Shown: positions 28,205 to 47,247 of the stretch, piece after piece
Numbering within the stretch: the stretch's first letter is position 1
Layout: each line of letters starts with the position of its first letter
NCBI GenBank assembly: GCA_035480715.1
Contig: DATIHL010000015.1
Span: 8,384 to 72,383 of the forward strand
Origin: Candidatus Saccharimonadales bacterium
GTDB lineage: Bacteria > Patescibacteriota > Saccharimonadia > Saccharimonadales > UBA10212
Direction: 5' to 3'
DNA length: 64,000 nucleotides
Notes under the pieces: generated by a model
Database searches by the model: none
What the model saw: only the letters and a program-made list of their open reading frames with translations
Told to the model about the DNA's origin: nothing
Program-made: the position numbers and the translations under genes

Positions 28205-29473
28205 ATGCCTAACCCACAACTTCCACTCAATAAAGAGGCGCCTCAGATACTCCACATCGACCTGAATAGCTGCTTTGCAACCGTAGAGCAGCAGGCCAGG
28301 CCACTGCTTAGAGGCAAGCCACTGGCAGTTACTAATCGTAAAACACCCAATGCCTGCGTAGTGGCAGCCAGCTATGAGGCTAAATCGCGCGGCGTCAAAG
28401 TTGGTATGGGCTACCGCGACGCCAAAATGCTGGTACCGGATCTTATAATGGTCGAAACCGACCCGCCTAAGTATCACCATGTCTACCAAATTTTGGTCAA
28501 TATCATGCGATCATACTCACCAAATGTCAGCATGAAGAGTATCGATGAGGGGATTATCGATTTTGCCGGTACCCGAGAGGTTATCAATAAACGCCCCTTA
28601 ACGGTTATCGGCTACGAGATAAAGAAGCGTCTTAAAGAGGAAGTTGGCAACTGGATGACATGCAACGTCGGTATAGCACCCAACCGTTTTTTGGCTAAAC
28701 AGGCCGCATCGCTAAATAAACCAGATGGTTTAGATGTAATTACTCATAAAAACCTGCGCCGGATACTATCAGATATGGAACTAACCGATCTATTCGGTAT
28801 TGCCGAGCGCAACCAGGCGCGCTTGAATGCCTGCGGCATCTTCACGCCATTGCAGTTTTTAGATGCCCCGGCCGATCTGCTCAAAAGACATGTCTTTAAA
28901 AGTGTTTGCGGCGAAGATTGGTATCAACGACTGCGCGGTTATGAAGTAGATAATCATGAATGGGCTACCAAAACTATTGGGCGACAATATGTGCTGGACG
29001 ATATGAAACCAAGCGACGAGCTTGTGCGCTCGCGCCTGAGCTACCTGTGTGAGACTACCGGCATAAAACTGCGCTACAAGCGCCTGTGTGCACGGGGGAT
29101 TTTTGTCTATGTCAGATATGACAGCGGTGACTACTGGTACGAGCGCAAGATGTTCAAAAGCAGCTTTTTTACCAACGCCGAGATACACCGGCGAGCCACA
29201 CTGCTTTTTAACCGCCGCCCGCGCTATGCCTACCCGCGTGAAATTGGTATCAGCTGCTATATGTTGTCACCATCAAACATGAGCCAAGTAAGCCTGCTAG
29301 AGGAAGTTAATAAAGAGATCTGGTTAACAGAGGCAGTCGATCGTATCAATGAGGATTTTGGTGAATTTACCGTAACTTTTGCCAGCAGTCTTACCGCCAA
29401 AGGCGTCGTTAAGCAAAAGATACCATTCGGCTCAACCCGCTACTTTGAGTTGCTCTGTAATCGCGCCGATTGA
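28205..29473 (+). CDS. dinB: Y-family DNA polymerase (DinB/ImpB type)
   Basis: ILHIDLNSCFATVEQQARPLLRGKPLAVTN, ASYEAKSRGVKVGM and SIDEGIIDF retain the catalytic Asp/Glu positions. GAGG lies 8 nt upstream of the ATG. Confidence 0.85.
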   Translation: MPNPQLPLNKEAPQILHIDLNSCFATVEQQARPLLRGKPLAVTNRKTPNACVVAASYEAKSRGVKVGMGYRDAKMLVPDLIMVETDPPKYHHVYQILVNIMRSYSPNVSMKSIDEGIIDFAGTREVINKRPLTVIGYEIKKRLKEEVGNWMTCNVGIAPNRFLAKQAASLNKPDGLDVITHKNLRRILSDMELTDLFGIAERNQARLNACGIFTPLQFLDAPADLLKRHVFKSVCGEDWYQRLRGYEVDNHEWATKTIGRQYVLDDMKPSDELVRSRLSYLCETTGIKLRYKRLCARGIFVYVRYDSGDYWYERKMFKSSFFTNAEIHRRATLLFNRRPRYAYPREIGISCYMLSPSNMSQVSLLEEVNKEIWLTEAVDRINEDFGEFTVTFASSLTAKGVVKQKIPFGSTRYFELLCNRAD

Positions 29474-29568: not shown

Positions 29569-30795
29569 GTGGATGGCATCATAGCTATGCTGGGATTTGG
29601 TCCTAAGAAGAGTAAGGCACTTCCCAAGCAGCAGGAGCTAAGCACTGAGTTCTTACTGAGCGCCATTGTCGACGGCGTGGTACTGGTTGGCGAAGATAAC
29701 ACTATCCATATGTTCAGCCCAGCAGCCAGCGCTATTACCGGCTGGCCAGTAAGTGAAGCCGTTGGCCTGGACTATAGAAGCGTTCTAAAGCTAAACGACG
29801 AACACGGCCAGCCATATGTTGCCGAGCGCGATCCATTTGCCCAGGCACTTAGGTCTCACTCAACAATAAAAGACGCCAAAGGCTTGCTGAGCACCAGGGG
29901 AGGTAAACAAGTACCGGTTTCTCTGATTGTTTCACCAGTAATTGTCGATGTACACAGTATGACCACTGGAGTGCTAGGAGTGTTTCGAGATATTACAGCC
30001 GAGCGTTTGGAAGATGATCGCCGTTCAGACTTTGTTAGTACTGCCAGCCACGAGCTACGTACTCCTATAGCGGCGATCGAGGGTTATCTAGCGCTAGCCC
30101 TCAACCCTAAAGCCGCTGTCATTGATGAGCGCGCAAGAAACTATCTTCAAAAGGCCCATAATTCCACTCGGCATTTGAGCCAACTTTTCGTTGATTTACT
30201 AGCCAGCTCCCAGGCAGAGGATGGCCGACTAAGTAGCTATCCCTCAGTGGTTGAACTAGGAGAAATCCTGGAGCAAATTGTTGATACTGCCCGCTTTAAT
30301 GCTCAAAACAAAGGCCTAGAGCTGCGCTATGTTTTAAATGCAGCTAAGGGTTTTGGTAGCGAGAAGGTGATACGCCCCTTATTTTACGTATACGTAGATC
30401 CCAATCGAATTCGCGAGGTATTCCAGAATCTGGTAGATAATTCCATTAAGTACACCAGCGAGGGTAGTGTCACGATCGCGTTGACCGGTGATAACTCCAT
30501 AGCGCAGGTACATATTACGGACACCGGGATTGGCATTGCCGAAGAAGACATTCCGCACCTCTTCCAAAAATTTTATCGTGTGGATAACTCTATGACGCGC
30601 ACAGTAGGCGGTACAGGGCTGGGATTGTTCATTAGCCGTAAGGTGATCGAGCTTTACAGCGGCCGTATCTGGGTGGAGAGTGTAGTAGGTAAAGGAAGTA
30701 CTTTCTTTATTAATCTGCCACGCTTGAGTCCAGAACAGGCTTTGCAGTCAAAGAAAAGCGAAGCTTCGACAATTCGCCCTTTGGGGAATAGTTAA
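29569..30795 (+). CDS. Soluble PAS-domain sensor histidine kinase
   Basis: No TM segment. PAS-like N-terminus, the H-box STASHELRTPIAAIEGY, and N/G boxes (NLVDNSIKYT, DTGIGI, GGTGLGL). The start is possibly at 29587. Confidence 0.85.
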   Translation: MDGIIAMLGFGPKKSKALPKQQELSTEFLLSAIVDGVVLVGEDNTIHMFSPAASAITGWPVSEAVGLDYRSVLKLNDEHGQPYVAERDPFAQALRSHSTIKDAKGLLSTRGGKQVPVSLIVSPVIVDVHSMTTGVLGVFRDITAERLEDDRRSDFVSTASHELRTPIAAIEGYLALALNPKAAVIDERARNYLQKAHNSTRHLSQLFVDLLASSQAEDGRLSSYPSVVELGEILEQIVDTARFNAQNKGLELRYVLNAAKGFGSEKVIRPLFYVYVDPNRIREVFQNLVDNSIKYTSEGSVTIALTGDNSIAQVHITDTGIGIAEEDIPHLFQKFYRVDNSMTRTVGGTGLGLFISRKVIELYSGRIWVESVVGKGSTFFINLPRLSPEQALQSKKSEASTIRPLGNS

Positions 30796-30838
30796 AGACT
30801 TTGGTACAATGAACTCAGCATAAGCTTTATGGGGAAAT

Positions 30839-31612
30839 ATGGCTAAAAAAGTTTTACTAGTCGAAGATGACAACGCCCTCCGCGAGATATTCGAAATGCG
30901 CTTGCAGGCCGAAGGCTATGAGACATTGAGCGCCAATGACGGCGAAGAAGCACTGGTCATCGCCACCAAAGAAAAGCCAGAACTAATTATCGCTGATGTG
31001 ATGATGCCAAAACTGTCTGGTTTTGAGATGCTAGAAACACTTAAGGCCGCGCCTGAAATGGGCCATGTTAAGGTAATTATGATGACCGCTCTCGGCCAAG
31101 CCGAAGACCGTACTCGCGGTGAAAAACTGGGCGTGGTAAAATATTTAGTGAAATCTCAAGTCACCTTGGAAGATTTCGTTCGCGTAGTCCGCGAAGTTTT
31201 GCCGCCCGATGGGCAGGCTCAAACCTCCTCGGACGATGCGGACGCAAAACAAGGAAATACGTCAACTAATAATCAAGAAAGTGAGCAAACTATGCAAGAC
31301 GACCAAAATCCATCAACAATGCCGCCAGCAGATAACTCTGCGGCCGGCGCAGATCCCATGGCTACCCCAAGTGGAGCTAGCGATCCGGCAGCCAGCGATC
31401 CAATGACCACCGAGGAAGAGAAGGTGGTTGTTAATAATCAAGTAAATGATTTTGCAGCTAGCGCGCCAGCAGAGCCGGCAATGCCAGCTGATCCTGCGCC
31501 TGCAGGTGACAGTGGAGCTCCAGCAGTCGAGCCTCCAATGCCCGAAGGGCCGGAGACTCCACCAGCAGAGCCTCCTAAGCCTGATGAAGGAACGCCTCCA
31601 GCAGGACTATAA
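30839..31612 (+). CDS. Response regulator receiver domain with a Pro/Ala/Asp-rich C-terminal tail and no recognisable output domain
   Basis: KVLLVEDD...IIADVMMPKLSG...MMTA...K form a REC domain (about 120 aa). It is followed by about 130 aa of low-complexity sequence (PPADNSAAGADPMATPSGASDPAASDP...PPAEPPKPDEGTPP). Confidence 0.8.
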   Translation: MAKKVLLVEDDNALREIFEMRLQAEGYETLSANDGEEALVIATKEKPELIIADVMMPKLSGFEMLETLKAAPEMGHVKVIMMTALGQAEDRTRGEKLGVVKYLVKSQVTLEDFVRVVREVLPPDGQAQTSSDDADAKQGNTSTNNQESEQTMQDDQNPSTMPPADNSAAGADPMATPSGASDPAASDPMTTEEEKVVVNNQVNDFAASAPAEPAMPADPAPAGDSGAPAVEPPMPEGPETPPAEPPKPDEGTPPAGL

Positions 31613-34930: not shown

Positions 34931-35794
34931 ATGAAAGTCAATACTCTTAAGCTTACTCCATCAAATTATCCTGATGTTCTCCGGCAAATATCTAGCCCAC
35001 CGAAGCAGCTATACTGGAGAGGAGTACCTTTAGAAGAAGTAATTTTAAAGCCAAGAGTCGCAATAGTCGGCAGCCGAAAAGCTACTCCATATGGTCGAAC
35101 AATTACAGAGGATTTGGCGACTAGGCTGGCGCGTGCTGGCGTAGTAATTATTAGCGGTCTGGCTTTCGGCATTGATTCTTATGCCCATAAGGCGACCTTA
35201 GCTGCTGGCGGCTGCACTATAGCTGTGCTACCATCACCAATTCAGAAAGTCGCACCAGCCACACATCATCATCTGGCCGAGCAAATAGTTAAGAATGGCG
35301 GCGCACTGACAAGTGAATACTCTGAGCATGAAGATGTTCATGTTGTTAATTTCATTGCGCGTAACCGTATTGTCAGTGGCCTGGCAGATGTTTTATTAAT
35401 AACAGAGGCTGCTAAAAATAGCGGCAGTTTACATACTGCGCGATTTGCGCTCGAGCAGGGTAAAACCGTGATGGCAGTACCCGGCAATATCAACAGTCCA
35501 ACCTCCGAAGGCTGTAACAATCTAATAAAAAGCGGGGCCGTGCCAGTGACCGGTATAGAAGATGTATTCTTTGCCTTAGGTATGGACCTACAACCTAAAC
35601 AAGCCATCAAAGTATTTAAAGGCACCAGCGAGCAGCAACTTATCTATAAACTTATTACACAGGGCATCAAAGACCAAGAAGAGCTGGCTCAAAGCAGTCA
35701 AATGGCCGTCCCACAGATTAGCAGTACGCTGACTACTCTGGAGCTACAAGGCTACATCCGCCCTATAGGCGCCGGCAGCTGGACAATAGCCTGA
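34931..35794 (+). CDS. dprA: DNA-processing protein DprA (Smf)
   Basis: VAIVGSRKATPYGRTITEDLATRLARAGVVIISGLAFGIDSYAHKATL and a C-terminal winged-helix-like region. Confidence 0.88.
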   Translation: MKVNTLKLTPSNYPDVLRQISSPPKQLYWRGVPLEEVILKPRVAIVGSRKATPYGRTITEDLATRLARAGVVIISGLAFGIDSYAHKATLAAGGCTIAVLPSPIQKVAPATHHHLAEQIVKNGGALTSEYSEHEDVHVVNFIARNRIVSGLADVLLITEAAKNSGSLHTARFALEQGKTVMAVPGNINSPTSEGCNNLIKSGAVPVTGIEDVFFALGMDLQPKQAIKVFKGTSEQQLIYKLITQGIKDQEELAQSSQMAVPQISSTLTTLELQGYIRPIGAGSWTIA

Positions 35795-35845: not shown

Positions 35846-38149
35846 ATGGCGAAAAACCTTGTGATTGTGGAGAGTCCGGCAAAAGCCCGGACACTGGCTC
35901 AATTTCTAGGTAGTGATTATAAAGTCGAGAGCACCTTCGGGCATATTAGAGATCTGCCTAAAAAAGAATTGGGTGTTGATATCAAAAAGAATTTTGAACC
36001 GACTTACGAGATATCGCCGGATAAACAGAAGGTGGTAGCAGGGCTTAAAAAGGCTGCAAAAGGCCACACGGTCTGGCTAGCTAGTGACGAGGATCGCGAA
36101 GGCGAGGCCATAGCTTGGCACGTTTGCTATATATTGGGCCTGGATCCTAAAAAGACCAACCGGATCGTCTTTCACGAAATTACCAAGCCAGCGATAACAG
36201 AGGCCGTTGCCCATCCTAGAACCATAGACGTCAAACTATTTCACGCCCAGCAAGCACGTCGGGTCTTAGATAGATTAGTAGGATATGAGCTCAGTCCTGT
36301 CTTGTGGAAAAAGGTTAGAGCCGGCCTGTCCGCCGGGCGTGTCCAGAGTGTAGCTGTTAGATTAATTGTTGAGCGTGAGCGAGAAATTACAGATCATAAA
36401 CCGGAAAGTACATTTAAAGTAACGGCCATTTTTGATGCTAAGGGCGAGGAGTTGGCCGCTGAGCTGGAACAGAAGATATCTGATATAAATGGCGCTAAAA
36501 AATTTCTGGAGTTTGCTAAAGATGCCAATTTCAGCGTTGCTTCTGTAGAGCAAAAGCCTGGTACGCGTTCGCCAGCCGCTCCTTTTACGACCAGTACTCT
36601 TCAGCAAGAAGCAGCCCGACGTTTGGGTTATAGCGTCCGGCAGACGATGAGCCTAGCCCAAAGACTCTATGAAAACGGTCACATAAGCTACATGCGTACC
36701 GATAGCACCAATCTTTCACCTCTAGCTATAGATGCCGCTAAGGCCTACATTACTAAAAATTTTGGCGACAAATATAGCCAGAGCCGGCAATATAAGACCA
36801 AAGATAAATCAGCCCAGGAAGCACACGAGGCTATCAGGCCCTCAAATATTACGAAGACCAAAGCTGGAGCAGACGCCCAACAGCAAAAAATTTATGATCT
36901 TATTTGGCGCAGAGCGGTTGCCAGCCAGATGGCGCCGGCTCAAATCGACAAAACAGAGGTAAAAATAGCCATCAGCGGCCACGATGAACAATTCATAGCC
37001 AACGGTGAAGTGTTGCGTTTTGATGGCTTCTATAAAGTTTACGGTGGTGGCAAGGAAGATCAGATTTTGCCCGTACTGAAAAAGGCAGATAAGCTCAAAT
37101 TACAAAGCTTGCTAGCAGCTGAAACCTTTAGCCGACCGCCTGCCCGTTACAGCGAGGCGACGCTCGTAAGAAAACTCGAGGAACTGGGCATTGGCCGCCC
37201 CAGTACCTACGCGCCGACAATTGGCACCATCCAAGACAGGGGCTACATCGAGAAAAAAGACTTAGAAGGCGAGCATAGGACCAGCCGCGAGCTAAGCCTG
37301 GAACACGGCAAAATTACGGAACGGGCAGTGGAGCAAACCGTTGGAGCCGATAGATCTAAACTTGTTCCGACGCAACTGGCCGACATCGTGACAGATTTCC
37401 TGACTAAATACTTCGCCAGCATTCTTGATTATGATTTTACTGCTCGGGCAGAAGAGGAACTCGACGATATCGCCGACGGTAAAACGCAGTGGCAGGACGC
37501 ATTGGCTCGTTTTTATGAACATTTCCACCCCCTAATTGAGAAGTCGAAGGATGTTAGTCGCTCGGAAACATTGCAAGTAAGGGAGCTCGGTAAAGATCCA
37601 AAAAGCGGCGAACCGGTTTTGGTGCGTTATGGCCGCTACGGCCCGGTGTTGCAAATTGGTAAAACACCCGATAAAAAAGATAAAGATGCTCCAAAACCAC
37701 GCTTTGCGCCTCTGCCAGCTGACACTACTTTAGAAGATGTGAATCTTGAACAGGCATTGCCGATGTTCAATTTACCCAGAGAAGTTGGCCAAACAGTAGA
37801 GGGTCAGACTATTACAGCCGACATTGGGCGATTCGGGCCTTATATAAAGGTAAGTAAAGAATTTACCAGCATCAAAGACCACGATCCACTGCATATCACC
37901 GAGGCTGAAGCTCGTAAGATACTCTCGGATAAGGCAACGGCAGCCGAGGAAAGAGAAATAGCCGATTTTGGCACTATTAAGGTACTGCGCGGTCCCTATG
38001 GCCCATATGCCACTGATGGTAAAAAGAATGTCAGAGTGCCTAAAGATGTGGATCCGACTAAGCTGACTGAGGTAGAGGCTAAAAAACTACTGGAAAAAGC
38101 TCCCACATCAAGAGGCAGACGATTTCCACGCCGCCCCAAAATCACCTAA
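35846..38149 (+). CDS. topA: DNA topoisomerase I
   Basis: LVIVESPAKA (Toprim), DEDREGE, ISYMRTDS (catalytic Tyr region), 767 aa. Confidence 0.93.
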   Translation: MAKNLVIVESPAKARTLAQFLGSDYKVESTFGHIRDLPKKELGVDIKKNFEPTYEISPDKQKVVAGLKKAAKGHTVWLASDEDREGEAIAWHVCYILGLDPKKTNRIVFHEITKPAITEAVAHPRTIDVKLFHAQQARRVLDRLVGYELSPVLWKKVRAGLSAGRVQSVAVRLIVEREREITDHKPESTFKVTAIFDAKGEELAAELEQKISDINGAKKFLEFAKDANFSVASVEQKPGTRSPAAPFTTSTLQQEAARRLGYSVRQTMSLAQRLYENGHISYMRTDSTNLSPLAIDAAKAYITKNFGDKYSQSRQYKTKDKSAQEAHEAIRPSNITKTKAGADAQQQKIYDLIWRRAVASQMAPAQIDKTEVKIAISGHDEQFIANGEVLRFDGFYKVYGGGKEDQILPVLKKADKLKLQSLLAAETFSRPPARYSEATLVRKLEELGIGRPSTYAPTIGTIQDRGYIEKKDLEGEHRTSRELSLEHGKITERAVEQTVGADRSKLVPTQLADIVTDFLTKYFASILDYDFTARAEEELDDIADGKTQWQDALARFYEHFHPLIEKSKDVSRSETLQVRELGKDPKSGEPVLVRYGRYGPVLQIGKTPDKKDKDAPKPRFAPLPADTTLEDVNLEQALPMFNLPREVGQTVEGQTITADIGRFGPYIKVSKEFTSIKDHDPLHITEAEARKILSDKATAAEEREIADFGTIKVLRGPYGPYATDGKKNVRVPKDVDPTKLTEVEAKKLLEKAPTSRGRRFPRRPKIT

Positions 38150-38354: not shown

Positions 38355-39395
38355 ATGGAAGATACAGCCAATACCAAACAACTGAACCTAGAGAGCATCG
38401 TCCAAGATGTTCTAAATACTATTGAGCGCGAACGCGAGCGGGAGATTATAGCTCGCCGCTTTGGTTTATTTGACAGAAGGGAGACGCTAGAGCAGATAGG
38501 AGAACTTCTGGGAATAACCAGAGAACGTGTCAGACAGCTGGAAAAGGCCGTTATAACTCGCTTAAAGGCCGCCGCTGAAGCAGGCGAACTGCCCCACATT
38601 AAAGACGTCGAGGGTACTCTTAGCGCTCATCTAAAAGATATGGGTAATGTCGCCCGTACCAGTGAACTTACCAACCGGGTAGCCTCCGGTGATCCCAAGG
38701 TTGAACACTCACGCGTAGCGTTTTTAGCCCACCTCAGTCCCGGATTGGCCGTAATAGACGATAATGATCACTTTTTTCACTCTATTGGGTTAGTAGCCGA
38801 GCACACTGAAAAGAAAATTCGCGACCATGTCGCCAAGATTATTGAAGCGATTCAGAAAATTGGCGAGCCGACTGATATCGAGACAATTGCCAAGCAGGTT
38901 GGTAATCCCAATAATAAGCACGTCGAAGCACTGGCTAGTGTTTCTAAGAACGTAGCGTCACTCCATGGACGATGGGGACTAGTTAAGTGGCCAATGGTTA
39001 ATCCGAAGAATATCCGCGACAAAATCTATGTCATATTGCACGACAATAAAAAGCCGATGCACTTTTCCGAAATAGCTGACGCCATCAAAAAGAGCGATTT
39101 CAAGCGCAAAGACGTCACCACTCAGGCAATTCATAACGAGCTAATAAAAGACAAGCGCTTTGTGCTGATAGGGCGGGGGATTTACGCCCTTAAAGAATGG
39201 GGTTACAAGCAGGGCACTGTGGCTGATGTAATAGCTGAAGTACTACGCAAAGAAGGTGGCCCGCTGCACCGAGATGAAATTGTGCGCCGCGTGCTAAAGA
39301 GCAGGCAAGTTAAAGAGACTACGATTTTGCTTAATCTGCAGGGAAAACCTCAGTTTAAACGAGTCGCCAAAGCTACATACACACTCGCAGAATAA
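38355..39395 (+). CDS. Sigma-70 region-4-like HTH protein with repeated HARE-HTH-like winged-helix modules
   Basis: The N-terminus RRFGLFDRRETLEQIGELLGITRERVRQLEKAVITRLK is sigma r4-like. Later IYVILHDNKKPMHFSEIADAI...RFVLIGRGIYALKEWGY and ...GRWGLVKW resemble the HARE-HTH motif of RpoE-delta type proteins. Confidence 0.6.
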   Translation: MEDTANTKQLNLESIVQDVLNTIEREREREIIARRFGLFDRRETLEQIGELLGITRERVRQLEKAVITRLKAAAEAGELPHIKDVEGTLSAHLKDMGNVARTSELTNRVASGDPKVEHSRVAFLAHLSPGLAVIDDNDHFFHSIGLVAEHTEKKIRDHVAKIIEAIQKIGEPTDIETIAKQVGNPNNKHVEALASVSKNVASLHGRWGLVKWPMVNPKNIRDKIYVILHDNKKPMHFSEIADAIKKSDFKRKDVTTQAIHNELIKDKRFVLIGRGIYALKEWGYKQGTVADVIAEVLRKEGGPLHRDEIVRRVLKSRQVKETTILLNLQGKPQFKRVAKATYTLAE

Positions 39396-39459: not shown

Positions 39460-42096
39460 ATGGGATTATTAGGTAGAAACAAGGCAGTTGGACCGGCGCA
39501 TGAGCACTGTTTGCTAATGCTCGAAGTACCGCGTACCAACGACAAAAAAGAGCTGGCCGCCGAGCAAATGTTGGCAGCTCTGCATGGAATTTTGCGTTCC
39601 AAGCGCGAACTGCGGATATCCGGGACACTCCAGGAACATATTAGTTTGGAAGTGGCGGCCATTGGTCAACGCATTCGTTTTTATATCTGGACACCTAAGC
39701 ACCTGCAGGCTTTCGTAGAAGGCCAAATCTATGCCCAATATCCAACCGTGCAAATATACGAACAAGAGGAAGATTACTCTGATAGGCCGATGCACCAGGG
39801 CGTCGTGCACAGCGCAGAACTTGTTTTATCCGATAATGAAACCCTGCCTATAAAAACCTTTCCCAGCTTCGAGGTGGACCCCCTAGCTGCCATTACGGCA
39901 ACCCTGGCTAAGCTAGATAAAGAAGACGAGGAAATGTGGATTCAGATTATGGCACGGCCGATATCTGACGATTGGCACCGAAAAGGCGCTAAAGCCGTAG
40001 CTCGTATCCGTAATCAACAGGGACTGTTTGGTGGCGGGGGCGGAGAACTAGTCAGCTATGCCGCCCAGGCTTTTGCCGCTCTAGCCAAGCCGCCAGCAGC
40101 TACAGACGGCGAAAAAGGGGCCCCCGAGCTTTCGGAGCGTGATAAAAGCCGGATTGCAGCGATAGAAACAAAAGGCATAAAGCTTGGTTACCAGGTAAAA
40201 ATCCGGCTACTGTATGCCGGACACGACCAACGCACAGCCCGCTTGCGTATGCAAGCGCTAGTTGGAGCATTTAAACAATTCAATTCTACTAACTTGAACG
40301 GCTTCCAAGCTAAAAACGCTACTTTTAATCGTGATAAGCAGCTCGAATATCAAACCCGATTCTTTATCGATAATGGCTACATTCTCAATATCGAAGAGCT
40401 GGCTAGTCTATTCCACCTGCCACACACTACAGTCGAGACGCCGAATATCGTTTGGGCGACGGTTAAGACGGCGGAACCGCCGTCAAACGTGCCGATTGCT
40501 ACAGCCGGACAAGAAGTAGATATCAGTCTGTTTGGTGTAACCAATTTTCGCGGCGATAACACAATTTTTGGAGCCTACCGCGGCGATCGCGGCCGCCACA
40601 TTTATATTTTGGGACAGACCGGCACGGGTAAGTCGGGAGCGTTAGAGCTTTTAACATTATCGGACATTTACTACAACCAGGGTTTTGCCGTAATCGACCC
40701 GCACGGTGATTACGCCCAGCACGTATTGAAGTTTATCCCCGAGAGACGCTTGGACGATATAGTCTACTTCAACCCCGCTGACAGGGAGTATCCAATCGGC
40801 TTCAACCCACTCGAGGTTACCGACCCGACAATGAAGGGACATATCAGCTCAGAGCTGGTGGGCGTACTGAAAAAGCTTTTTGCCGAAAGCTGGGGCCCAA
40901 GGCTGGAGTATATTCTGCGCTACACGCTGCTAGCACTGCTGGATTATCCTAACTCCACACTGCTTGACATTACACGCATGCTAACCGAGAAGAAATTCCG
41001 CCAAGATGTCATAGACCACCTTCAGGATCCGGTTGTCCGTAACTTTTGGGTCAACGAGTTTGCCAGCTGGAACGATAAATTCGCCACCGAAGCCGTAGCA
41101 CCAGTATTAAACAAGGTAGGTGCCTTCACAGCCAACCCAATGATCCGGAACATTGTAGGCCAGCCTAAGAGTACCTTTAACATTCGCCAGATAATGGACG
41201 AGGGCAAAATCCTGATTGCCAACCTTAGCCGCGGACTAATGGGTGAAGATAACGCAGCGACGCTTGGCGCTATGATGGTAGCTAAGATCCAGCTATCGGC
41301 TATGAGCCGCGCCGACGTACCGGAGAGCGAGCGGCGCCAGTTTTATCTATATGTCGATGAATTTCAGAATTTTGCAACTGACAGCTTTGCTACCATCCTC
41401 AGCGAAGCGCGTAAATACGCCCTTAATTTAACGATCGCTAACCAATACATATCGCAGATGGAGCAGGCTGTACGCGACGCCGTTTTCGGTAATGTTGGGA
41501 CTATCGTGAGCTTTAGGGTCAGCCCCGATGACTCACCATTTCTGCAAAAGTATTTTGAGCCGCAGTTCGAATCGACTGATTTAATCCAGCAACATAACCG
41601 CTATTTTGTAGTTAGTATGACGATTGACGGCGAAAAAGCACCGGCGTTTTCTGCCAAGACGCTGAATCTGCCACAGCCCGCCAAGGATCTAACGTCAGAA
41701 ATTGTCGAGCTATCTCGGCAAAGATTCTCCCAGCCGCGTGCAGCCATCGAGGCTGTAATCCACGAAGCTGCGACTAAAATCGGCGAACCTAAACAGATAG
41801 CTCCACCAGCCAACCAGCAACGGCCTAAGGTTCAAGCCCAGCTAAATACGCTCCAAGCTATAGATGATAACAAGCCGGCTGATCATAATCGTATTGGAAA
41901 AGTAGCTGGCAGCCTTCTAAAGTCGGTTGCGAGCGAACCCAATGATGATCAGCCTACTAAAAAAAGGCGCAGGCGGCGGCGGCGAAGTAGGCCAGCGTCG
42001 CAGGATGGAGCTGCTACTACTGCCCAACATGCTAATGTTCAACAGCCGGCTCCAGCTCAAAAGAGCGAAGAAGAGCACACCATACGTCTGCGTTAG
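39460..42096 (+). CDS. FtsK/HerA/VirD4-superfamily P-loop ATPase (TraD/TraG coupling-protein-like) lacking TM segments
   Basis: 878 aa. Walker A is GQTGTGKSG and Walker B is FYLYVDEFQNFAT, with LTIANQY. The N-terminal domain of about 350 aa is uncharacterised, and the C-terminal tail is Q/P/A-rich with KKRRRRRRRSRP. Confidence 0.65.
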   Translation: MGLLGRNKAVGPAHEHCLLMLEVPRTNDKKELAAEQMLAALHGILRSKRELRISGTLQEHISLEVAAIGQRIRFYIWTPKHLQAFVEGQIYAQYPTVQIYEQEEDYSDRPMHQGVVHSAELVLSDNETLPIKTFPSFEVDPLAAITATLAKLDKEDEEMWIQIMARPISDDWHRKGAKAVARIRNQQGLFGGGGGELVSYAAQAFAALAKPPAATDGEKGAPELSERDKSRIAAIETKGIKLGYQVKIRLLYAGHDQRTARLRMQALVGAFKQFNSTNLNGFQAKNATFNRDKQLEYQTRFFIDNGYILNIEELASLFHLPHTTVETPNIVWATVKTAEPPSNVPIATAGQEVDISLFGVTNFRGDNTIFGAYRGDRGRHIYILGQTGTGKSGALELLTLSDIYYNQGFAVIDPHGDYAQHVLKFIPERRLDDIVYFNPADREYPIGFNPLEVTDPTMKGHISSELVGVLKKLFAESWGPRLEYILRYTLLALLDYPNSTLLDITRMLTEKKFRQDVIDHLQDPVVRNFWVNEFASWNDKFATEAVAPVLNKVGAFTANPMIRNIVGQPKSTFNIRQIMDEGKILIANLSRGLMGEDNAATLGAMMVAKIQLSAMSRADVPESERRQFYLYVDEFQNFATDSFATILSEARKYALNLTIANQYISQMEQAVRDAVFGNVGTIVSFRVSPDDSPFLQKYFEPQFESTDLIQQHNRYFVVSMTIDGEKAPAFSAKTLNLPQPAKDLTSEIVELSRQRFSQPRAAIEAVIHEAATKIGEPKQIAPPANQQRPKVQAQLNTLQAIDDNKPADHNRIGKVAGSLLKSVASEPNDDQPTKKRRRRRRRSRPASQDGAATTAQHANVQQPAPAQKSEEEHTIRLR

Positions 42097-42383
42097 TTGC
42101 AGCTGTCAATCTTACTTTCATTTAAGTACGAACATTTTACGAACACTACTAATCAAGCATTCATGCGAATAACGACACGAGCTGCGCAAAAGGACAGTGC
42201 GAGGCAGCAGAGACAGAAAATTAAATTAAAATTTGTTAGCATCTAGAAAATTAATGTATTGAAGGAGCAAGGGGGAATCAGAATCAAGTCTTAGACTTTG
42301 GGTCGCACAATGTATATTTTGCGACTCTATATAATATGTAGGAGTTGATTCGTTATACCCCTCCTAACAGGGGAGGATCGCTC

Positions 42384-42470
42384 GTACTTCCAAAAAAGAG
42401 ACCGCCCGCATGCCGCATCGCCTGAGGCGGTACGGCGTATTCGCTGCTTAACTCTCTTTTTCGGAAGTAC
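42384..42470. other. 87-nt extended imperfect hairpin in a gene-free convergent spacer (terminator, sRNA or palindromic element)
   Basis: GTACTTCCAAAAAAGAGA (42384-42401) pairs with TCTCTTTTTCGGAAGTAC (42453-42470) at 17 of 18 positions. It encloses the GC hairpin 42412-42436 (GCCG-c-ATCGCC/GGCGGT-a-CGGC, loop TGA). Confidence 0.5.
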
Positions 42471-42690
42471 TCGCTCCATCAATTCTTTCTGTGAAAAGTG
42501 GCCGAGTTATCCACAAGCACATGTAGCGTATTTGACTTTCCATTCTTTGATATCCTTATATACTTTTCCCCTGCTTTACCAATTTAAATATATCCTTTGA
42601 CTTTTGGTATTTTAATATACTAGTATAGTTTTTCCCTGCTGCCACTTGCTAACCATTAAATGAACAAAATACGAACACCAGTGGGGTAGT

Positions 42691-44040
42691 TTAGTCTACT
42701 TCCAATTTTAGTGGCTTGGGCTTATTTTGAATTGCTAAATAGGAAACTACGCCAGCTATGGCAGCCAATCCCCCGCAGAGAATCATACTAAAACGAAAGA
42801 TATGCCCTGCTCCGAATAGACCCAGTATGGCAATTACAATTAGGCCAGCTATGCGCGAAACGGCGTTATTAATGCCTGACGCAATACCAGAACTTGACTC
42901 CTCAACGGAGGTCATTACAGTAGTAGTAAGGGGAGCTACCAATAATACTAACCCGATGCTGAACAATAGTACTCTTGGCAGCATGAACCAGAGATAGCTG
43001 TGTCCAGGACGGTAATCTACCAATAGAAACATGCCAGCAGCCGCGACGATGGGACCGATTGTCATAAAGAGACGTGGACCATATTTCGATGAAAGGCGAC
43101 CGACTCTTCTAGAAAATAGTAGTAGCATGATAGATACCGGCAGTAAACTCGCGCCGGCTTTAATGGCAGAATAGCCGAGCTTGGTCTGCATATAAATGAC
43201 TAGTGAAAACATAAAGCCTGCCAAGGCTCCATACATGCCAAAAGTCATGATGTTGGATGCCGAAAAATTGCGCGAGCGGAATAGTGCCAAATGGATCATC
43301 GGATCCTTATTCCGATGTTCATACCACAAAAAGAGCCCACCGAAAAGAACCCCTGAAACAAGTGGGATAATAGCCTTGGCATGCCATTGGGCTACTGGAC
43401 CTTCTATCAGTCCGTACGTAATGCCCGCTAAGGCCAAAATACACAAGATAGCACCTGTAACATCTACCTTTCTGACCCTTTGGTCTCGGCTCTCTTCGAC
43501 GCCTTTAGCAGCCAGCACGCCACACACAACTATAAGTGGTACGTTTATGAAGAAAATCCAGCGCCAGGTGGTAGCATCAATAACGTAGCCACCAACCAGC
43601 GGACCAATCGCAGCTAAAATACCCGACCAGGCAGACCATGTACCAATGGCTGCTCCTCGTTGCTCGCGTGGAAAGTTAGTATTAATAATCGCTAATCCGC
43701 CAGGAACTAAAAGCGCTCCAAAAACTCCCTGAAGAAGCCGGAAAGCAATCAAAAAACCAACATTCGGTGATAAACCACAAAGCAACGATATGGTCCCAAA
43801 ACCTATCAAACCAGTAATGTATACTCGTTTACGACCAAAAATGTCGCCTAGCGAGCCGCCTAGCAGTATCAGCGAAGACAATGATAGTAAATAACCATCT
43901 GCAATCCATTGTAAATCAGAAAAATCAGCGTGCAGATTAAAGGCGATCTTCGGTAGAGCCAAATTTACGATTGTACCGTCTAGAAAAACTACTCCACTGC
44001 CAATAATCGTGGCAATCAGAGCTAATGTACGTTTGCTCAT
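42691..44040 (-). CDS. MFS transporter (DHA2/EmrB-like drug:H+ antiporter family)
   Basis: 449 aa with about 14 hydrophobic segments. GGSLGDIFGRKRVY matches the MFS motif A region. Confidence 0.85.
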   Translation of the reverse strand: MSKRTLALIATIIGSGVVFLDGTIVNLALPKIAFNLHADFSDLQWIADGYLLSLSSLILLGGSLGDIFGRKRVYITGLIGFGTISLLCGLSPNVGFLIAFRLLQGVFGALLVPGGLAIINTNFPREQRGAAIGTWSAWSGILAAIGPLVGGYVIDATTWRWIFFINVPLIVVCGVLAAKGVEESRDQRVRKVDVTGAILCILALAGITYGLIEGPVAQWHAKAIIPLVSGVLFGGLFLWYEHRNKDPMIHLALFRSRNFSASNIMTFGMYGALAGFMFSLVIYMQTKLGYSAIKAGASLLPVSIMLLLFSRRVGRLSSKYGPRLFMTIGPIVAAAGMFLLVDYRPGHSYLWFMLPRVLLFSIGLVLLVAPLTTTVMTSVEESSSGIASGINNAVSRIAGLIVIAILGLFGAGHIFRFSMILCGGLAAIAGVVSYLAIQNKPKPLKLEVD

Positions 44041-44104
44041 GGCTCAATCATAGCAAATATATATGTTGCGATTAACACAACAGAACTCTTGTCCCCTACC
44101 TTAG

Positions 44105-44212
44105 TCACTTGTAATATACCTTGCCGGGTACACGCACATCCAGATATTGTGATGGCTGAGTGTTAGATTGATCGAATCTGTGGCGCGTTGCTAGAAATTG
44201 GCCAGTCTGCAG
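44105..44212 (-). pseudogene. Orphan C-terminal fragment of an ftsQ-like gene (35 codons plus stop, no start)
   Basis: It translates to LQTGQFLATRHRFDQSNTQPSQYLDVRVPGKVYYK-stop, against LQAGQFLASRRQFDQTSTQPSQYLDVRVPGKVYYK-stop at the end of the intact gene (45204-45311). An in-frame stop lies 3 codons upstream. Confidence 0.7.
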
Positions 44213-44249
44213 CCAAAAAATTTACTGCATCCCCCGCTGCTGCCAAGAA

Positions 44250-44549
44250 CTAGAAGTTTGCTAGCTCGCCGTTTAGCGTCGAAAGATCACTACCGTCGGC
44301 GGTTGGCGTACCGTTCTGGTCAAGTGCTTTTTGAGCTTTGTCTAGGTCACTCGTAGAGTTAATAGTCGGAGCTGCAGAAGTATTTTTGGCCGCTAGCTGA
44401 GATCCGGAAGTGGTGTCAGAGGCTACTTGGTCAGTTGAATTTTTGGTGTTATAGACTTTATAGCCTACAAAGGCGACCAGACCGACTATTACCAGAACCA
44501 GAACAGTTTCAACTACTGTGAAACCCAGGTTATTCTTGCTTCTACTCAT
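44250..44549 (-). CDS. Prepilin-type N-terminal cleavage/methylation domain protein (short type IV pilin-like)
   Basis: MSRSKNNLGFTVVETVLVLVIVGLVAFVGY is a class III signal (G/FTxxE plus a hydrophobic helix). The C-terminal part is Ser/Thr/Asn-rich. Confidence 0.7.
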   Translation of the reverse strand: MSRSKNNLGFTVVETVLVLVIVGLVAFVGYKVYNTKNSTDQVASDTTSGSQLAAKNTSAAPTINSTSDLDKAQKALDQNGTPTADGSDLSTLNGELANF

Positions 44550-44550
44550 T

Positions 44551-45126
44551 TTATTGATTCCCTCCCGTAGTTGTATTGTCGCTGTTTGAGCTGTTGGTTG
44601 AATTATCCGGAGTTGCGTCTGATTGCACAGATTTAACGGCCACTATCAGATCCTTTATGGACTGCTGATAGGCATGTAGGGCCTGGATTTCTAATTTGAG
44701 ATCGTCCTTGAATCCCTGCGCAACTCCTTTAGGATCCGTACCATCGCACTTGAAGTTGGCTTTGTCTGTCTTGATTTTATCGATAGCGTCCTGAGCAGCC
44801 GTCTTTTTGGTATTGACATCAGCCACGAGCGTATCGTAGTTGGTAACGGTTTTACTCTTTTTGGTGTAAAAATCCTCAACGCGTGTAGCTATTGTCGTAT
44901 AAACGCCCAGTCGTTTTTGGCCGCGCTCAGCAATATTAGCCATTATTTTATTTATGACCGCTTCGTGTTTTTGGCAGGCCTTAAGCTTGGCGTCCTGCAG
45001 GCGCGTCTCGGCGGCTGCCTGAGCTGCTACTGCATGCACATTAGCAATAGCAAAAGCCGGCGCACTGCATACGAGTAGCGTTGCTATGCCGGTAGCAGCT
45101 GCGGTTTTAGTGATAAATCGGTGCAT
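44551..45126 (-). CDS. Secreted hypothetical protein (Sec signal peptide, helical, Ser/Asn/Thr-rich C-terminus)
   Basis: The MHRFITKTAAATGIATLLVCSAPAFA signal-like N-terminus and an AAGGGATAAGGA RBS region. No known domain. Confidence 0.5.
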   Translation of the reverse strand: MHRFITKTAAATGIATLLVCSAPAFAIANVHAVAAQAAAETRLQDAKLKACQKHEAVINKIMANIAERGQKRLGVYTTIATRVEDFYTKKSKTVTNYDTLVADVNTKKTAAQDAIDKIKTDKANFKCDGTDPKGVAQGFKDDLKLEIQALHAYQQSIKDLIVAVKSVQSDATPDNSTNSSNSDNTTTGGNQ

Positions 45127-45203
45127 ATAATCCTTATCCCTTAATTACTAGAGATTAGTGTATGGCTTGTTAACGCCCGAGTCAATAATGGTCGGCTGTC
45201 TGT

Positions 45204-45311
45204 TCATTTATAGTAAACTTTACCCGGAACACGCACATCCAGATATTGTGATGGTTGAGTACTAGTTTGATCAAACTGGCGGCGCGATGCTAGAAATTGG
45301 CCAGCCTGCAA
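45204..45311 (-). repeat. Intact-gene copy of the ftsQ 3'-end repeat (partner of 44105-44212)
   Basis: By my manual alignment, 88 of 108 nt are identical to 44105-44212, including the identical 26-nt core ACACGCACATCCAGATATTGTGATGG. Confidence 0.7.
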
Positions 45312-46058
45312 TAGGCCATCGCCACCCAGATAGAATTTTACAAAGTAGCCCCTGTCAGCTGTACGCATATCGACCTCTTGAGCTAGCTGAGGTAATGTCA
45401 ATGAAGCAATTGTAACCCCAGCGTGTTTAGCTTGCTCAGATACGATATTAATAAAATTAACACTGGTTGCGCTAAGAACTTGCTGTCCTTGTTTTATATC
45501 AAATCCACTCTGATCAATAACTTTTGGTAGGTCTTTAATTTTGGGCAATTCAGAAGCCTTAATGACCGCAACTCCTTGAGAATCTACAATGTAATCCACA
45601 CCTCGACTATTTAGAGTAAAGCTTGGAGAAGCGATGTTGAGTCTAACGGTCGGTTTGGTACTGAGGATTAGCAGGTCAATCCTACCGTCCACTATCTCAG
45701 GAAATTGTCGCTGCAAAGACGTTATAATAGCTTTTTCATCCATTGTCAGCTTATTGCGGTTTTTTATCTTTTTGAACTCTTTAACTGAGGCTTCTTGATA
45801 TGTTGAGACCGGACGATAGACAGACGAATTTAAAACAACCTTGGGGCTTGATTTAACAACCAGAGTGTAGGCAGCGCCTGATAACAATGCAATCAGTAAC
45901 AAAAAATCTACTAATCTTGAGAAGGATTTCCGACGCCGCGGTTTGGTTTTCTTATCAAAAGGACTGCTAGCTGAACGCTCAGCTGAGCGGTAATATCGCA
46001 ACGCTGCTTTTGACGAGCCGTTAGATGGATTGCGGTTTCTGGGCCTATTGTCCGACAT
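45204..46058 (-). CDS. ftsQ: Cell division protein FtsQ/DivIB-like
   Basis: It sits after murG in the dcw cluster. Basic cytoplasmic N-terminus, one TM segment (LVDFLLLIALLSGAAYTLVV), and a POTRA-like region. Confidence 0.6.
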   Translation of the reverse strand: MSDNRPRNRNPSNGSSKAALRYYRSAERSASSPFDKKTKPRRRKSFSRLVDFLLLIALLSGAAYTLVVKSSPKVVLNSSVYRPVSTYQEASVKEFKKIKNRNKLTMDEKAIITSLQRQFPEIVDGRIDLLILSTKPTVRLNIASPSFTLNSRGVDYIVDSQGVAVIKASELPKIKDLPKVIDQSGFDIKQGQQVLSATSVNFINIVSEQAKHAGVTIASLTLPQLAQEVDMRTADRGYFVKFYLGGDGLLQAGQFLASRRQFDQTSTQPSQYLDVRVPGKVYYK

Positions 46059-47247
46059 TAGTCGATTTATTCCTGTGCTGCTTGGCTACGTCCAGCAAAA
46101 TTTCTGCCAGTTTATTAGCTGCATCGACCTTTGCCAATGATCCGAGTTTATCTGACAATTGCCGGCGCTTAGCATCATCTTCCAAAACTTTTGTGATGGC
46201 TTTAAGAAGCGTCGTATCATCGGCTTCATTAGCGATCACCAGTACTGCTTTGTGCCTTTCTAGCTCCTTAGCATTTTTTAGCTGTTGACCGCCGGTTAAA
46301 TGCGGTGCCGGAATTAAAATAACGGCTTTTCGCTGGGCGGCCAGTTCGGCAATAGTGGTGGCGCCCGCACGCGTAATAACTAAATCAGCAGCGCCCGTAT
46401 ATATAGAAAAATCAGGCGTAAAGCCAATAACTTTGACCCGATCCATATCGTCGGGCGCTGAATCCTGATACTTCTCTTTAACCTCTGGCTCGTGCTTCTG
46501 CCCGGTTATATGAATTATATGTAGATTCTTAAAACGTGTTAGTAGTTCTGGAGCTGCTACCACAGCTTTTTTATTAATATCTTGCGCACCAAGCCCTCCC
46601 CCGCTGAAAAGCAGAGTCAGGGCATCTTTTGGCAGGCCCAGTTGCTTTTTAAGATCTTTTTGCATTTGGGCTGTTACTGGCTTAATCCGCTCGTCTAGTG
46701 GAATGCCCACGTAATGAACGGTTTCTTCAGGATAGCTATGATATTTAGCCGGCATGCCAGTAGCATGGACTTGCGCAAATCGCCCAATGATACGATTTGC
46801 CAGACCCGGAACAGTATCTGAATCGTGAGTAACTATGGGGATTTTTTGCAGACGAGCTGCTAAGCCGACTGGCACCGCCACAAAACCACCTTTAGAAAAG
46901 ACGATATTCGGCTTAATTTGCCTGAGGATTTTACGAGCCGACCTAAATCCAGCCAGTACGCGGAAAATATCTCTGATATTTAAAGCTATGGTGCGTACAT
47001 CAACTAGATGCGCCAAAAGGCTCTCGCCATAGTAACGGCGAAACTTACCGGATGGGATAGAGCGAACTTCGTCAAATATCTGGTACCGTGCTTGTAGACT
47101 GTTTTCAAGTGTTTCCCCTTTTAGCCCGATATAGACGATATAGCATTTCGGTGAGGCCTTTTTAAGTGCGTGGGCGAGCGACAGCAGAGGGGTTATGTGC
47201 CCCCCCGAGCCGCCGCCCGTTAAAACTATAGTTAATGACTTTTTCAT
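46045..47247 (-). CDS. murG: Undecaprenyldiphospho-muramoylpentapeptide beta-N-acetylglucosaminyltransferase MurG
   Basis: LTGGGSGGHITPLLSLAHAL and ITRAGATTIAELAA. Confidence 0.9.
   Translation of the reverse strand: MKKSLTIVLTGGGSGGHITPLLSLAHALKKASPKCYIVYIGLKGETLENSLQARYQIFDEVRSIPSGKFRRYYGESLLAHLVDVRTIALNIRDIFRVLAGFRSARKILRQIKPNIVFSKGGFVAVPVGLAARLQKIPIVTHDSDTVPGLANRIIGRFAQVHATGMPAKYHSYPEETVHYVGIPLDERIKPVTAQMQKDLKKQLGLPKDALTLLFSGGGLGAQDINKKAVVAAPELLTRFKNLHIIHITGQKHEPEVKEKYQDSAPDDMDRVKVIGFTPDFSIYTGAADLVITRAGATTIAELAAQRKAVILIPAPHLTGGQQLKNAKELERHKAVLVIANEADDTTLLKAITKVLEDDAKRRQLSDKLGSLAKVDAANKLAEILLDVAKQHRNKSTNVGQ

Follow-up and report, generated by a model that had tools for sequence, protein, structure and literature searches.

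An orphan ftsQ 3′ end in a Saccharimonadales genome as a probable recombination scar in a variable cargo slot beside the putative replication terminus

Introduction

Chromosomal hotspots between core genes, e.g. capsule and O-antigen loci, are exchanged via conserved flanking genes. Islands and prophages that target the ends of tRNA or protein genes displace gene 3′ ends at their borders, and elements of this type leave behind the order intact gene, insert, orphan end. Other elements integrate at dif via Xer recombinases; dif modules are also known from Acinetobacter plasmids. Here we describe a locus with likeness to all three. In a 64 000-nt stretch of DNA from a Candidatus Saccharimonadales bacterium (assembly GCA_035480715.1, contig DATIHL010000015.1, positions 8384 to 72 383; ‘the window’ below), the 3′ end of the division gene ftsQ occurs twice: once in the intact gene and once as an orphan copy without a start, with two genes lying between the copies. 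An original prediction, made from the letters of the window, held that the orphan was probably an allele left behind by a recombination event that had brought in a new ftsQ 3′ end together with the two genes (‘the cassette’).

With the capsule and O-antigen hotspots the locus shares a short interval with conserved borders, unrelated cargo (from empty to 4.3 kb) and disagreement between cargo and backbone. It differs from them in that an essential division gene provides the left anchor with its final few dozen bases, and the last eight codons of this gene appear to travel with the cargo, while the right anchor is noncoding DNA beside a dif-like site and the interval has no mobility genes. The likeness to island and prophage borders lies in the succession of an intact gene, an insert and a directly oriented orphan 3′ end, the two ends having an identical core; here, however, there is no integrase, the insert is conserved in the clade, the repeat is explained by protein conservation and one side of the core has diverged more than the other. 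As in Xer/dif elements, variable cargo is found beside a dif-like site, but in the window it is ∼350 nt away from that site and is not bracketed by dif-like sites.

A further described process is homology-facilitated illegitimate recombination; integration with one homologous and one illegitimate end has been reported in Acinetobacter, Streptococcus and Pseudomonas (PMC3240628). Our locus resembles its products in the abrupt end of homology, the conserved other side, the competent host group and the presence of dprA in the window; the difference is that here the process would have to be read from a single old scar, with no significant microhomology at the junction. Natural competence, with incoming DNA integrated by homologous recombination, is known from Saccharibacteria (PMC10633639). 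Patchy mosaics are a known outcome of transformation (PMC13344027).

Results

The two ftsQ ends diverged as coding sequence

The longest direct repeat found by repeat search in this region pairs 44105-44211 with 45204-45310 at 82% identity. A codon-by-codon count of the orphan against the ftsQ end gave 88/108 identical nucleotides and 29/35 identical amino acids, reproducing the figures of the original prediction. As it had also stated, the orphan has no usable start and an in-frame stop lies three codons upstream (the frame reads ...GMQ-stop-IFW-LQTGQFLATRHRFDQSNTQPSQYLDVRVPGKVYYK-stop), and all differences in the final eight sense codons (VPGKVYYK) are synonymous: every codon differs, at the third position only.

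The 108-nt alignment of the copies is free of indels and stops. Comparison of the 35 codons gave nonsynonymous divergence (dN) of 0.086 and synonymous divergence (dS) of 0.97, with dN/dS ∼0.09. All six amino acid replacements fall in variable columns of an alignment of 40 family sequences (P = 0.013), the residues at the six replaced sites are common in the family, and derived states are split between both copies (in comparison with L142, L143 and L004; such labels denote individual related loci). The two copies diverged as coding sequence under selection, as was first proposed. The low dN/dS, the family-typical replacements and the split of derived states indicate that both evolved as working FtsQ ends in separate genomes. 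Because the divergence is of the coding type, the orphan is likely to be an allele left at a recombination junction and not a decayed in-place duplicate; on this point the original prediction is supported. A duplicate fixed in relatives, which it had named as the contrary case, was not seen: no second ftsQ tail was present in the related loci tested (48 plus 13 more).

The repeat is a mosaic

The original prediction explained the repeat by a single allele replacement. We observed that divergence between the copies is not uniform. In codons 1-27 the copies are 85% identical at the nucleotide level and 23/27 third positions are equal, whereas in codons 28-35 the number of equal third positions is 0/8 (Fisher P = 2e-5 for the contrast). 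Over codons 1-27 neither copy has a closer relative than the other copy; the remaining comparisons, with ∼40 family members, are saturated (6-13/27 third positions in the 5′ part, mean 3.3/8 in the 3′ part). With relatives, the identity of the 5′ part ranges over 46-72%; for the 3′ part the mean within the family is 68%. When 819 pairs of family tails were ranked, the window pair came first by its 5′ part and was in the lowest 1.6% by its 3′ part. The break coincides with the 3′ edge (in gene direction) of a 26-nt block identical in both copies (45231/45228). Differences in the 5′ 81 nt are distributed over the codon positions as 5:3:4.

These data indicate that in at least one copy the last eight codons and the first 27 are of different origin. 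As codons 1-27 and 28-35 would then have different histories, one simple allele swap is insufficient and at least two events are needed. The last eight codons, when compared with relatives carrying the cassette and with relatives carrying a gene for a transporter of the MFS family, gave no signal of origin, the sites being saturated. It can be added that the last eight codons in 45204-45230 and 44105-44131 share zero third positions yet encode the same, slightly unusual, peptide VPGKVYYK.

The junction is abrupt and is very unlikely to be an assembly artifact

Homology between the copies stops abruptly at 44212/44213, and there is neither a repeat nor a recombinase site at this position, as expected of a scar. 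Alignment of the 78 nt upstream of both copies was no better than that of shuffled sequence (P 0.06-0.4). An upstream extension of the orphan was considered and rejected: with three insertions the 37-nt spacer between the orphan and the preceding gene reads F-Y-L-(A)G-D-A-V, similar to FYLGGDAL of FtsQ, with scores no better than those of shuffles.

Separate contigs assembled from single runs (SRR9179559, -60, -62, -63) span the orphan and its two neighbours, a pilin-like gene and the MFS gene, at 100% identity. The longest exact repeat is 26 nt, and no shared sequence at the junction would be able to mislead an assembler. Since four single-run contigs agree and the longest exact repeat is so short, an assembly error is very unlikely; at the junction, the contigs from the four sequencing runs agree with the window base for base. 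Two Logan contigs, L003 and L002, end at window positions 45206 (ftsQ stop codon) and 44263 (13 nt before the end of the pilin-like gene), respectively; other contigs from the same runs overlap the two ends and continue identically, and low coverage is the likely cause, with minority alleles branching at these points a less likely one.

Some peculiarities were noticed at the end of the pilin-like gene (44250-44258). Its protein ends with ...LANF, and at the position of the N, 6/6 aligned orthologs have A or G (codon AAC in the window against GCG/GGT in orthologs). The final 9 nt of the gene, AAC TTC TAG, resemble AAA TTC TAT of ftsQ, 12 codons upstream of the repeat. The stop codon and the next three bases, TAGTTC (the start of the spacer), equal the first 6 nt of the conserved motif described below. 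The true junction might lie at the 9 nt or at TAGTTC, with no statistical support for either.

A variable slot follows ftsQ in related genomes

We compared ∼55 related Saccharimonadales loci; in the scan of genome contigs a single FtsQ protein matched nothing, while an alignment used as a query worked. A scan of metagenome contigs with the MFS protein was dominated by distant MFS genes and yielded no close context. In 30 measurable loci the ftsQ stop was separated from a conserved motif (TAGTTCGTATTTTGTTCA) by 15 to 4352 nt, and this interval (‘the slot’) carried four or more kinds of cargo; a further empty slot, in L149, is 13 nt long. The slot is empty in L006, L007, L013, L014, L017, L024 and L149. 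It holds the cassette, i.e. the pair of genes for a 191-aa protein and a pilin-like protein, in L004, L009, L010, L020, L142, L143, L144/L145 and L148. In L054, L055 and L026, among others, the slot is occupied by a PAP2 gene, in some cases with a gene for a Cho-like nuclease, plus an MFS gene; in L005, L030 and L033 it is occupied by ABC transporter genes. In the window the slot holds two modules in tandem, the cassette and the MFS module; the orphan lies precisely where one gives way to the other.

Past the motif comes a noncoding stretch, and in most loci 545-830 nt separate the motif from the next gene. The loci then continue with a convergent gene for a VirD4/TraD-like ATPase, a gene for a sigma-region-4/HARE-HTH protein, and topA.

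A direct succession of ftsQ and the MFS gene, as the synteny check in the original prediction envisaged, was seen in 0 of the ∼55 loci, and the closest relatives of the window carry the cassette. In MFS-type loci, either PAP2 with or without the Cho-like gene or ABC genes stand between ftsQ and the MFS gene. In L012 (6373-6568) two short MFS fragments (residues 375-441) between a PAP2 gene and the motif represent a pseudogene remnant, another sign of slot turnover.

The MFS module disagrees with the backbone

The MFS gene was identified by Pfam MFS_1 (188.5 bits against a gathering cut-off of 33.4, E = 2e-55); homologs in JGI are named as the EmrB/QacA subfamily. Between its stop and the motif there are 12 nt, the spacing also seen in MFS-type relatives. 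Homologs at 81-84% identity reside in genomes with distant backbones. The MFS protein of the window shares 81% identity with its counterparts in L054 and L055, which share 83% with one another, while the backbone comparisons give, for murG, 49% (window with L054/L055) against 60% (L054 with L055) and, for mraY, 77-80% against 87%. In both flanks, to which the 3′ end of the VirD4-like gene belongs, the window is most similar to cassette-bearing genomes. Since MFS identity disagrees with that of backbone genes, the MFS gene appears to have moved between lineages. No anomaly was found in GC content of the modules, either overall or at third codon positions (GC3).

The cassette is a conserved pair of genes

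The original prediction noted exactly two genes between the copies; these turned out to be a real pair, conserved together in related loci. The pair follows ftsQ directly in the eight settings listed above (L144 and L145 counted together), and these cassette-bearing loci are the closest relatives of the window. The sequence TTGACT-17-TAAACT is located between ftsQ and the pair in L004, L009, L010, L020, L142, L143 and L148 (7/7 spacers read; for L144/L145 we read the gene order, and their spacer is not among the seven). In L146 (5001-5845) and L147 the pair (187 + 93 aa) is located away from ftsQ and dif, between DoxX-like and NUDIX genes. The pair moves as a unit and, judging from this conservation, is likely to be a clade-conserved operon with its own conserved promoter-like site. 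A strain-variable module, as was first supposed, is hard to reconcile with a pair that stands directly behind ftsQ and a conserved promoter-like site in seven related loci. Concerning the suggested read-through from ftsQ, we found no terminator-like site that would stop it, which leaves this suggestion standing in part; against it, the cassette has a promoter-like site of its own.

The 191-aa protein has 154 homologs, all from Saccharimonadales/Patescibacteria, and no Pfam domain; C51 and C127 are invariant. The structural model (predicted local distance difference test, pLDDT, 82) has helices at residues 29-90, 97-124 and 132-170, a predicted three-helix bundle, and the fold search against PDB returned generic helical bundles only, with no meaningful match.

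The 99-aa protein (MSRSKNNLG/FTVVETVLVLVIVGLVAFVGY) has the layout of a class III signal peptide: a basic leader, Gly, Glu at +5 and a hydrophobic helix of ∼20 residues. The prepilin motif G/FTxxE and the hydrophobic helix are followed by a conserved C-terminal helix; G9, F10 and E14 are invariant in seven orthologs. Against Pfam N_methyl the protein scored 18.5 bits, with the gathering cut-off at 21.2; 3/7 orthologs matched N_methyl at E <= 0.01, and the NCBIfam GspG and PpdD N-termini were matched weakly. There were no genes for prepilin peptidase or pilus assembly among the annotated open reading frames (ORFs) of the window. A surface or pseudopilus role of the pair is a guess. A candidate for a decayed tail remnant after the pilin-like gene of L142, GEFLAVRHE, was not significant at the nucleotide level and was discarded.

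The slot lies next to a dif-like site

In the noncoding stretch past the motif there is one palindrome per locus, GTCGCAAAA-TATACA-TTGTGCGAC, found even in distant Saccharimonadia. This dif-like site is located downstream of ftsQ in ∼45 related Saccharimonadia loci, including that of Ca. Saccharimonas aalborgensis (L045), and its central hexamer is the same as that of E. coli dif. Because genes converge at the site and the cumulative GC skew peaks there (∼38-42 kb of the window), the slot is likely to adjoin the replication terminus and a dimer-resolution site. With a matrix built from 31 dif-like sites, 42300-42327 scored 41.3 against a shuffle maximum of 8.6 within 42000-46100. There was no second dif-like site in this range: the next score was −9.1 (shuffle mean −5.1), and the blocks of the ftsQ tails scored ∼−30. 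A literature search returned no paper that mentioned Saccharibacteria together with ‘dif site’.

The noncoding region of ∼590 nt (42097-42690) is conserved across the family and has no Rfam match. The motif GTTCGTAWWWTGTTC is present at both of its ends in direct orientation (42661-42678 and 42130-42146). An invariant DnaA-box-like sequence, TTATCCACA, is located at 42507-42515, two tandem promoter-like repeats TTGACT-N17-TATACT at 42531-42575 and 42596-42640 on the plus strand, and hairpins at 42360-42378 and 42384-42470.

The VirD4/TraD-like ATPase (878 aa) keeps its synteny beside the dif-like site, where it is accompanied by the genes for the sigma-region-4/HARE-HTH protein (38355-39395), topA (35846-38149) and dprA (34931-35794); there are no other type IV secretion genes near it. 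According to a preprint, most VirD4-type homologs in the phylum are not near virB4 and have perhaps been repurposed (10.1101/2025.01.22.634366). For the ATPase in the window, an FtsK-like role at the terminus is conceivable.

The gene upstream of the slot is a diverged ftsQ

The 284-aa product of ftsQ had no match in Pfam, in NCBIfam or in a profile search of PDB sequences. The AlphaFold model (pLDDT 88) matched solved FtsQ structures (8hhf_Q with E = 1e-10, 5z2w, 6h9o, 2vh1); the best eight matches in the Foldseek search of PDB were all FtsQ, with E = 1e-10 to 9e-8 and probability 1.0. The model shows a disordered N-terminus and one long helix at residues 45-66, a bitopic layout, followed by the POTRA + beta domain fold of FtsQ/DivIB. 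The gene also has the expected place at the end of the dcw cluster, whose order in the window is ftsI-mraY-ftsW-murG-ftsQ on the minus strand. Since the model matches solved FtsQ structures and nothing else, the protein is predicted to be a true FtsQ, highly diverged at the sequence level. The tail is the most conserved part of the family (alignment of 40 sequences), and the stretch encoding YLDVRV corresponds to a terminal beta strand in the model.

Features of the locus are listed in Table 1. A spacer of 64 nt separates the orphan from the MFS start, and the weak hairpin falls within it.

Table 1. Features of the ftsQ-terminus locus and of other genes in the window (window coordinates)
Feature	Position	Strand	Basis or remark
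murG	46045-47247	minus	ORF list
ftsQ (284 aa), last gene of dcw cluster	45204..46058	minus	ORF, immediately downstream of murG
Functional repeat copy: final 35 ftsQ codons + stop	45204..45311	minus	Repeat search, codon count
26-nt block, same in both copies, encodes QPSQYLDVR	45229..45254; partner 44130-44155		Longest exact repeat
Promoter-like TTGACT-17-TACACT for the 191-aa/pilin-like pair	45157..45185	minus	18 nt past ftsQ stop
Gene for 191-aa secreted protein, signal peptide ...APAFA/I	44551..45126	minus	ORF
Gene for 99-aa pilin-like protein, leader ...NNLG/FTVVE	44250..44549	minus	ORF
37-nt spacer, ends at putative illegitimate junction 44212/44213	44213..44249	minus	Sequence comparison
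Orphan ftsQ 3′ end, 35 codons + stop, chimeric	44105..44212	minus	Codon comparison
Weak hairpin followed by T-rich run	44064..44082	minus	Sequence scan; 22 nt past orphan stop
MFS (EmrB/QacA-type) transporter gene, second cargo module	42691..44040	minus	Pfam MFS_1
Slot-bounding conserved motif, terminus side; minus strand GTGTTCGTATTTTGTTCA	42661..42678		Comparison of related loci
dif-like palindrome GGGTCGCACAA-TGTATA-TTTTGCGACTC, 28 nt	42300..42327		Gene convergence, GC skew switch
Convergent VirD4/TraD-like ATPase gene (DUF8128 + TrwB)	39460..42096	plus	Conserved right flank of locus
Y-family DNA polymerase (IMS)	28205-29473		No evident link to orphan
PAS histidine kinase + response regulator	29569-31612		No evident link to orphan
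Sortase-domain protein	20352-21602		No evident link to orphan

Discussion

The orphan is probably a non-functional recombination scar in a hypervariable cargo slot beside the replication terminus. We infer the mechanism, the order and the direction of events from what the data show: the mosaic repeat, the variability of the slot, its conserved flanks, the discordance of the MFS gene and the divergence of the copies under selection. The most likely route is that the slot is swapped between lineages by homologous recombination anchored in two conserved flanks, namely the end of ftsQ that encodes YLDVRV and, at the far border, the motif/dif region, with DNA entering the cell most likely by natural transformation. 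At first, a slot exchange with a crossover in the YLDVRV block would have supplied a close relative of the window's ftsQ with foreign last eight codons and the MFS module. A crossover in this block would carry the last eight codons along with the cargo, so that these codons would be saturated while the preceding 81 nt would not. Later, a one-sided event, with one homologous end and one illegitimate end at 44212/44213, would have joined this allele to a cassette allele without replacing the latter. We slightly prefer the direction in which a chromosome with the cassette acquired the orphan and the MFS gene; the reverse has almost the same likelihood.

Several observations weigh against this reconstruction. 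As no ftsQ-MFS adjacency was observed, an extra deletion or an unseen donor type is required. There was no close relative in the collections searched (the best FtsQ match is 60% identical), therefore neither parental arrangement is observable. The noncoding dif region, with 59-66% identity to all relatives, gives no signal of origin. The 0/8 third positions are below even the mean of saturated pairs, 3.3/8, and only 1.6% of pairs share none; nothing beyond chance is offered as explanation. Finally, the direction of the last event is not fixed by the data, as both directions need an equal number of events.

It is possible, though doubtful, that the direction was that of the original prediction, in which a chromosome with ftsQ next to the MFS gene received the 3′ part of ftsQ, the promoter and the genes for the 191-aa and pilin-like proteins, with homology in ftsQ/murG and, at the other end, an illegitimate join 35 codons ahead of the resident stop codon, so that the resident tail persisted as the orphan. 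An arriving cassette with a new ftsQ end is compatible with our data; arrival of the orphan and the MFS gene fits equally well. The original direction would be a standard outcome with one homologous and one illegitimate end (PMC3240628) and needs no duplication step; the cassette is indeed present or absent among the closest relatives (L148 carries it, L149 is empty), the pair is also located elsewhere in one genome (L146), and the orphan lies close to the MFS start. Its cost is that the lineage must have lost the clade-typical cassette to an MFS module and later acquired it again in that very position, that an earlier crossover in the YLDVRV block is still needed to account for the saturated last eight codons, and that the starting arrangement, ftsQ followed by the MFS gene, has no example among the related loci.

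One could speculate that the ftsQ end and the motif are the matched anchors of a dedicated cargo-exchange site at the terminus, perhaps driven by Xer/dif or by the VirD4-like translocase and not by passive homologous recombination. We consider this rather unlikely; if true, swapped cargo would routinely bring with it the eight final codons of an essential division gene.

Tandem duplication of the ftsQ tail in place, alone or with the cassette, followed by neutral decay, is improbable. It would agree with the 5′ 81 nt of the copies being nearest to each other and with the near-uniform distribution of their differences over codon positions; yet neutral decay does not account for 8/8 synonymous changes at the end, for 6/6 replacements confined to variable columns and to family-typical residues, for the split of derived states, or for the lack of indels and stops, and a local copy cannot yield 0/8 beside 23/27 identical third positions.

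Still less probable is site-specific integration, by an integrase or Xer, of a small element that carried an ftsQ end as its attachment site, restored ftsQ with it and displaced the native end. An identical 26-nt core with diverged flanks in both copies, and a dif-like site ∼1.8 kb from the orphan, would be in keeping with such an element. There is, however, no recombinase gene in the slot or among the annotated ORFs and no match to Phage_integrase or resolvase; the range 42000-46100 has just the one dif-like site, with strongly negative scores for the ftsQ-tail blocks; protein constraint explains the 26-nt block; and no other locus has flanking tail repeats.

To the retention of the orphan for a function, as an MFS promoter, leader, attenuator or small peptide, we assign a similarly low probability. 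A promoter-like site upstream (44219-44246), the weak hairpin downstream and the intact frame could hint at it, but the frame has no start codon and a stop three codons upstream, the orphan is absent from every related MFS locus, the folding energy of the orphan with its spacers is no better than that of shuffles (z = 0.2), no Rfam match exists in 41900-45400, and the number of promoter-like sites in the region, 11, is within the range of shuffles (7.9 +/- 3.5). Least probable of all is an assembly chimera of two co-existing strains: this is a metagenome assembly and two Logan contigs end nearby, yet four single-run contigs cross the junction at 100% identity where no repeat exceeds 26 nt.

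What is newly recognised here is the mosaic nature of the repeat; current understanding of recombination is unchanged. The orphan, read as a scar, would record an illegitimate join and a crossover that took place, in an essential gene, within the best-conserved coding block, and would be rare direct physical evidence of gene-content exchange in an uncultured lineage with reduced genomes. The pilin-like operon, as a conserved neighbour of the division cluster, deserves a genetic test. As Saccharibacteria are a group shown to be transformable, the terminus slot and the dif-like site may be more useful by-products of this analysis than the orphan itself: a slot beside a putative dif site, conserved across Saccharimonadia, would offer a defined locus for the study of recombination and for engineered insertions.

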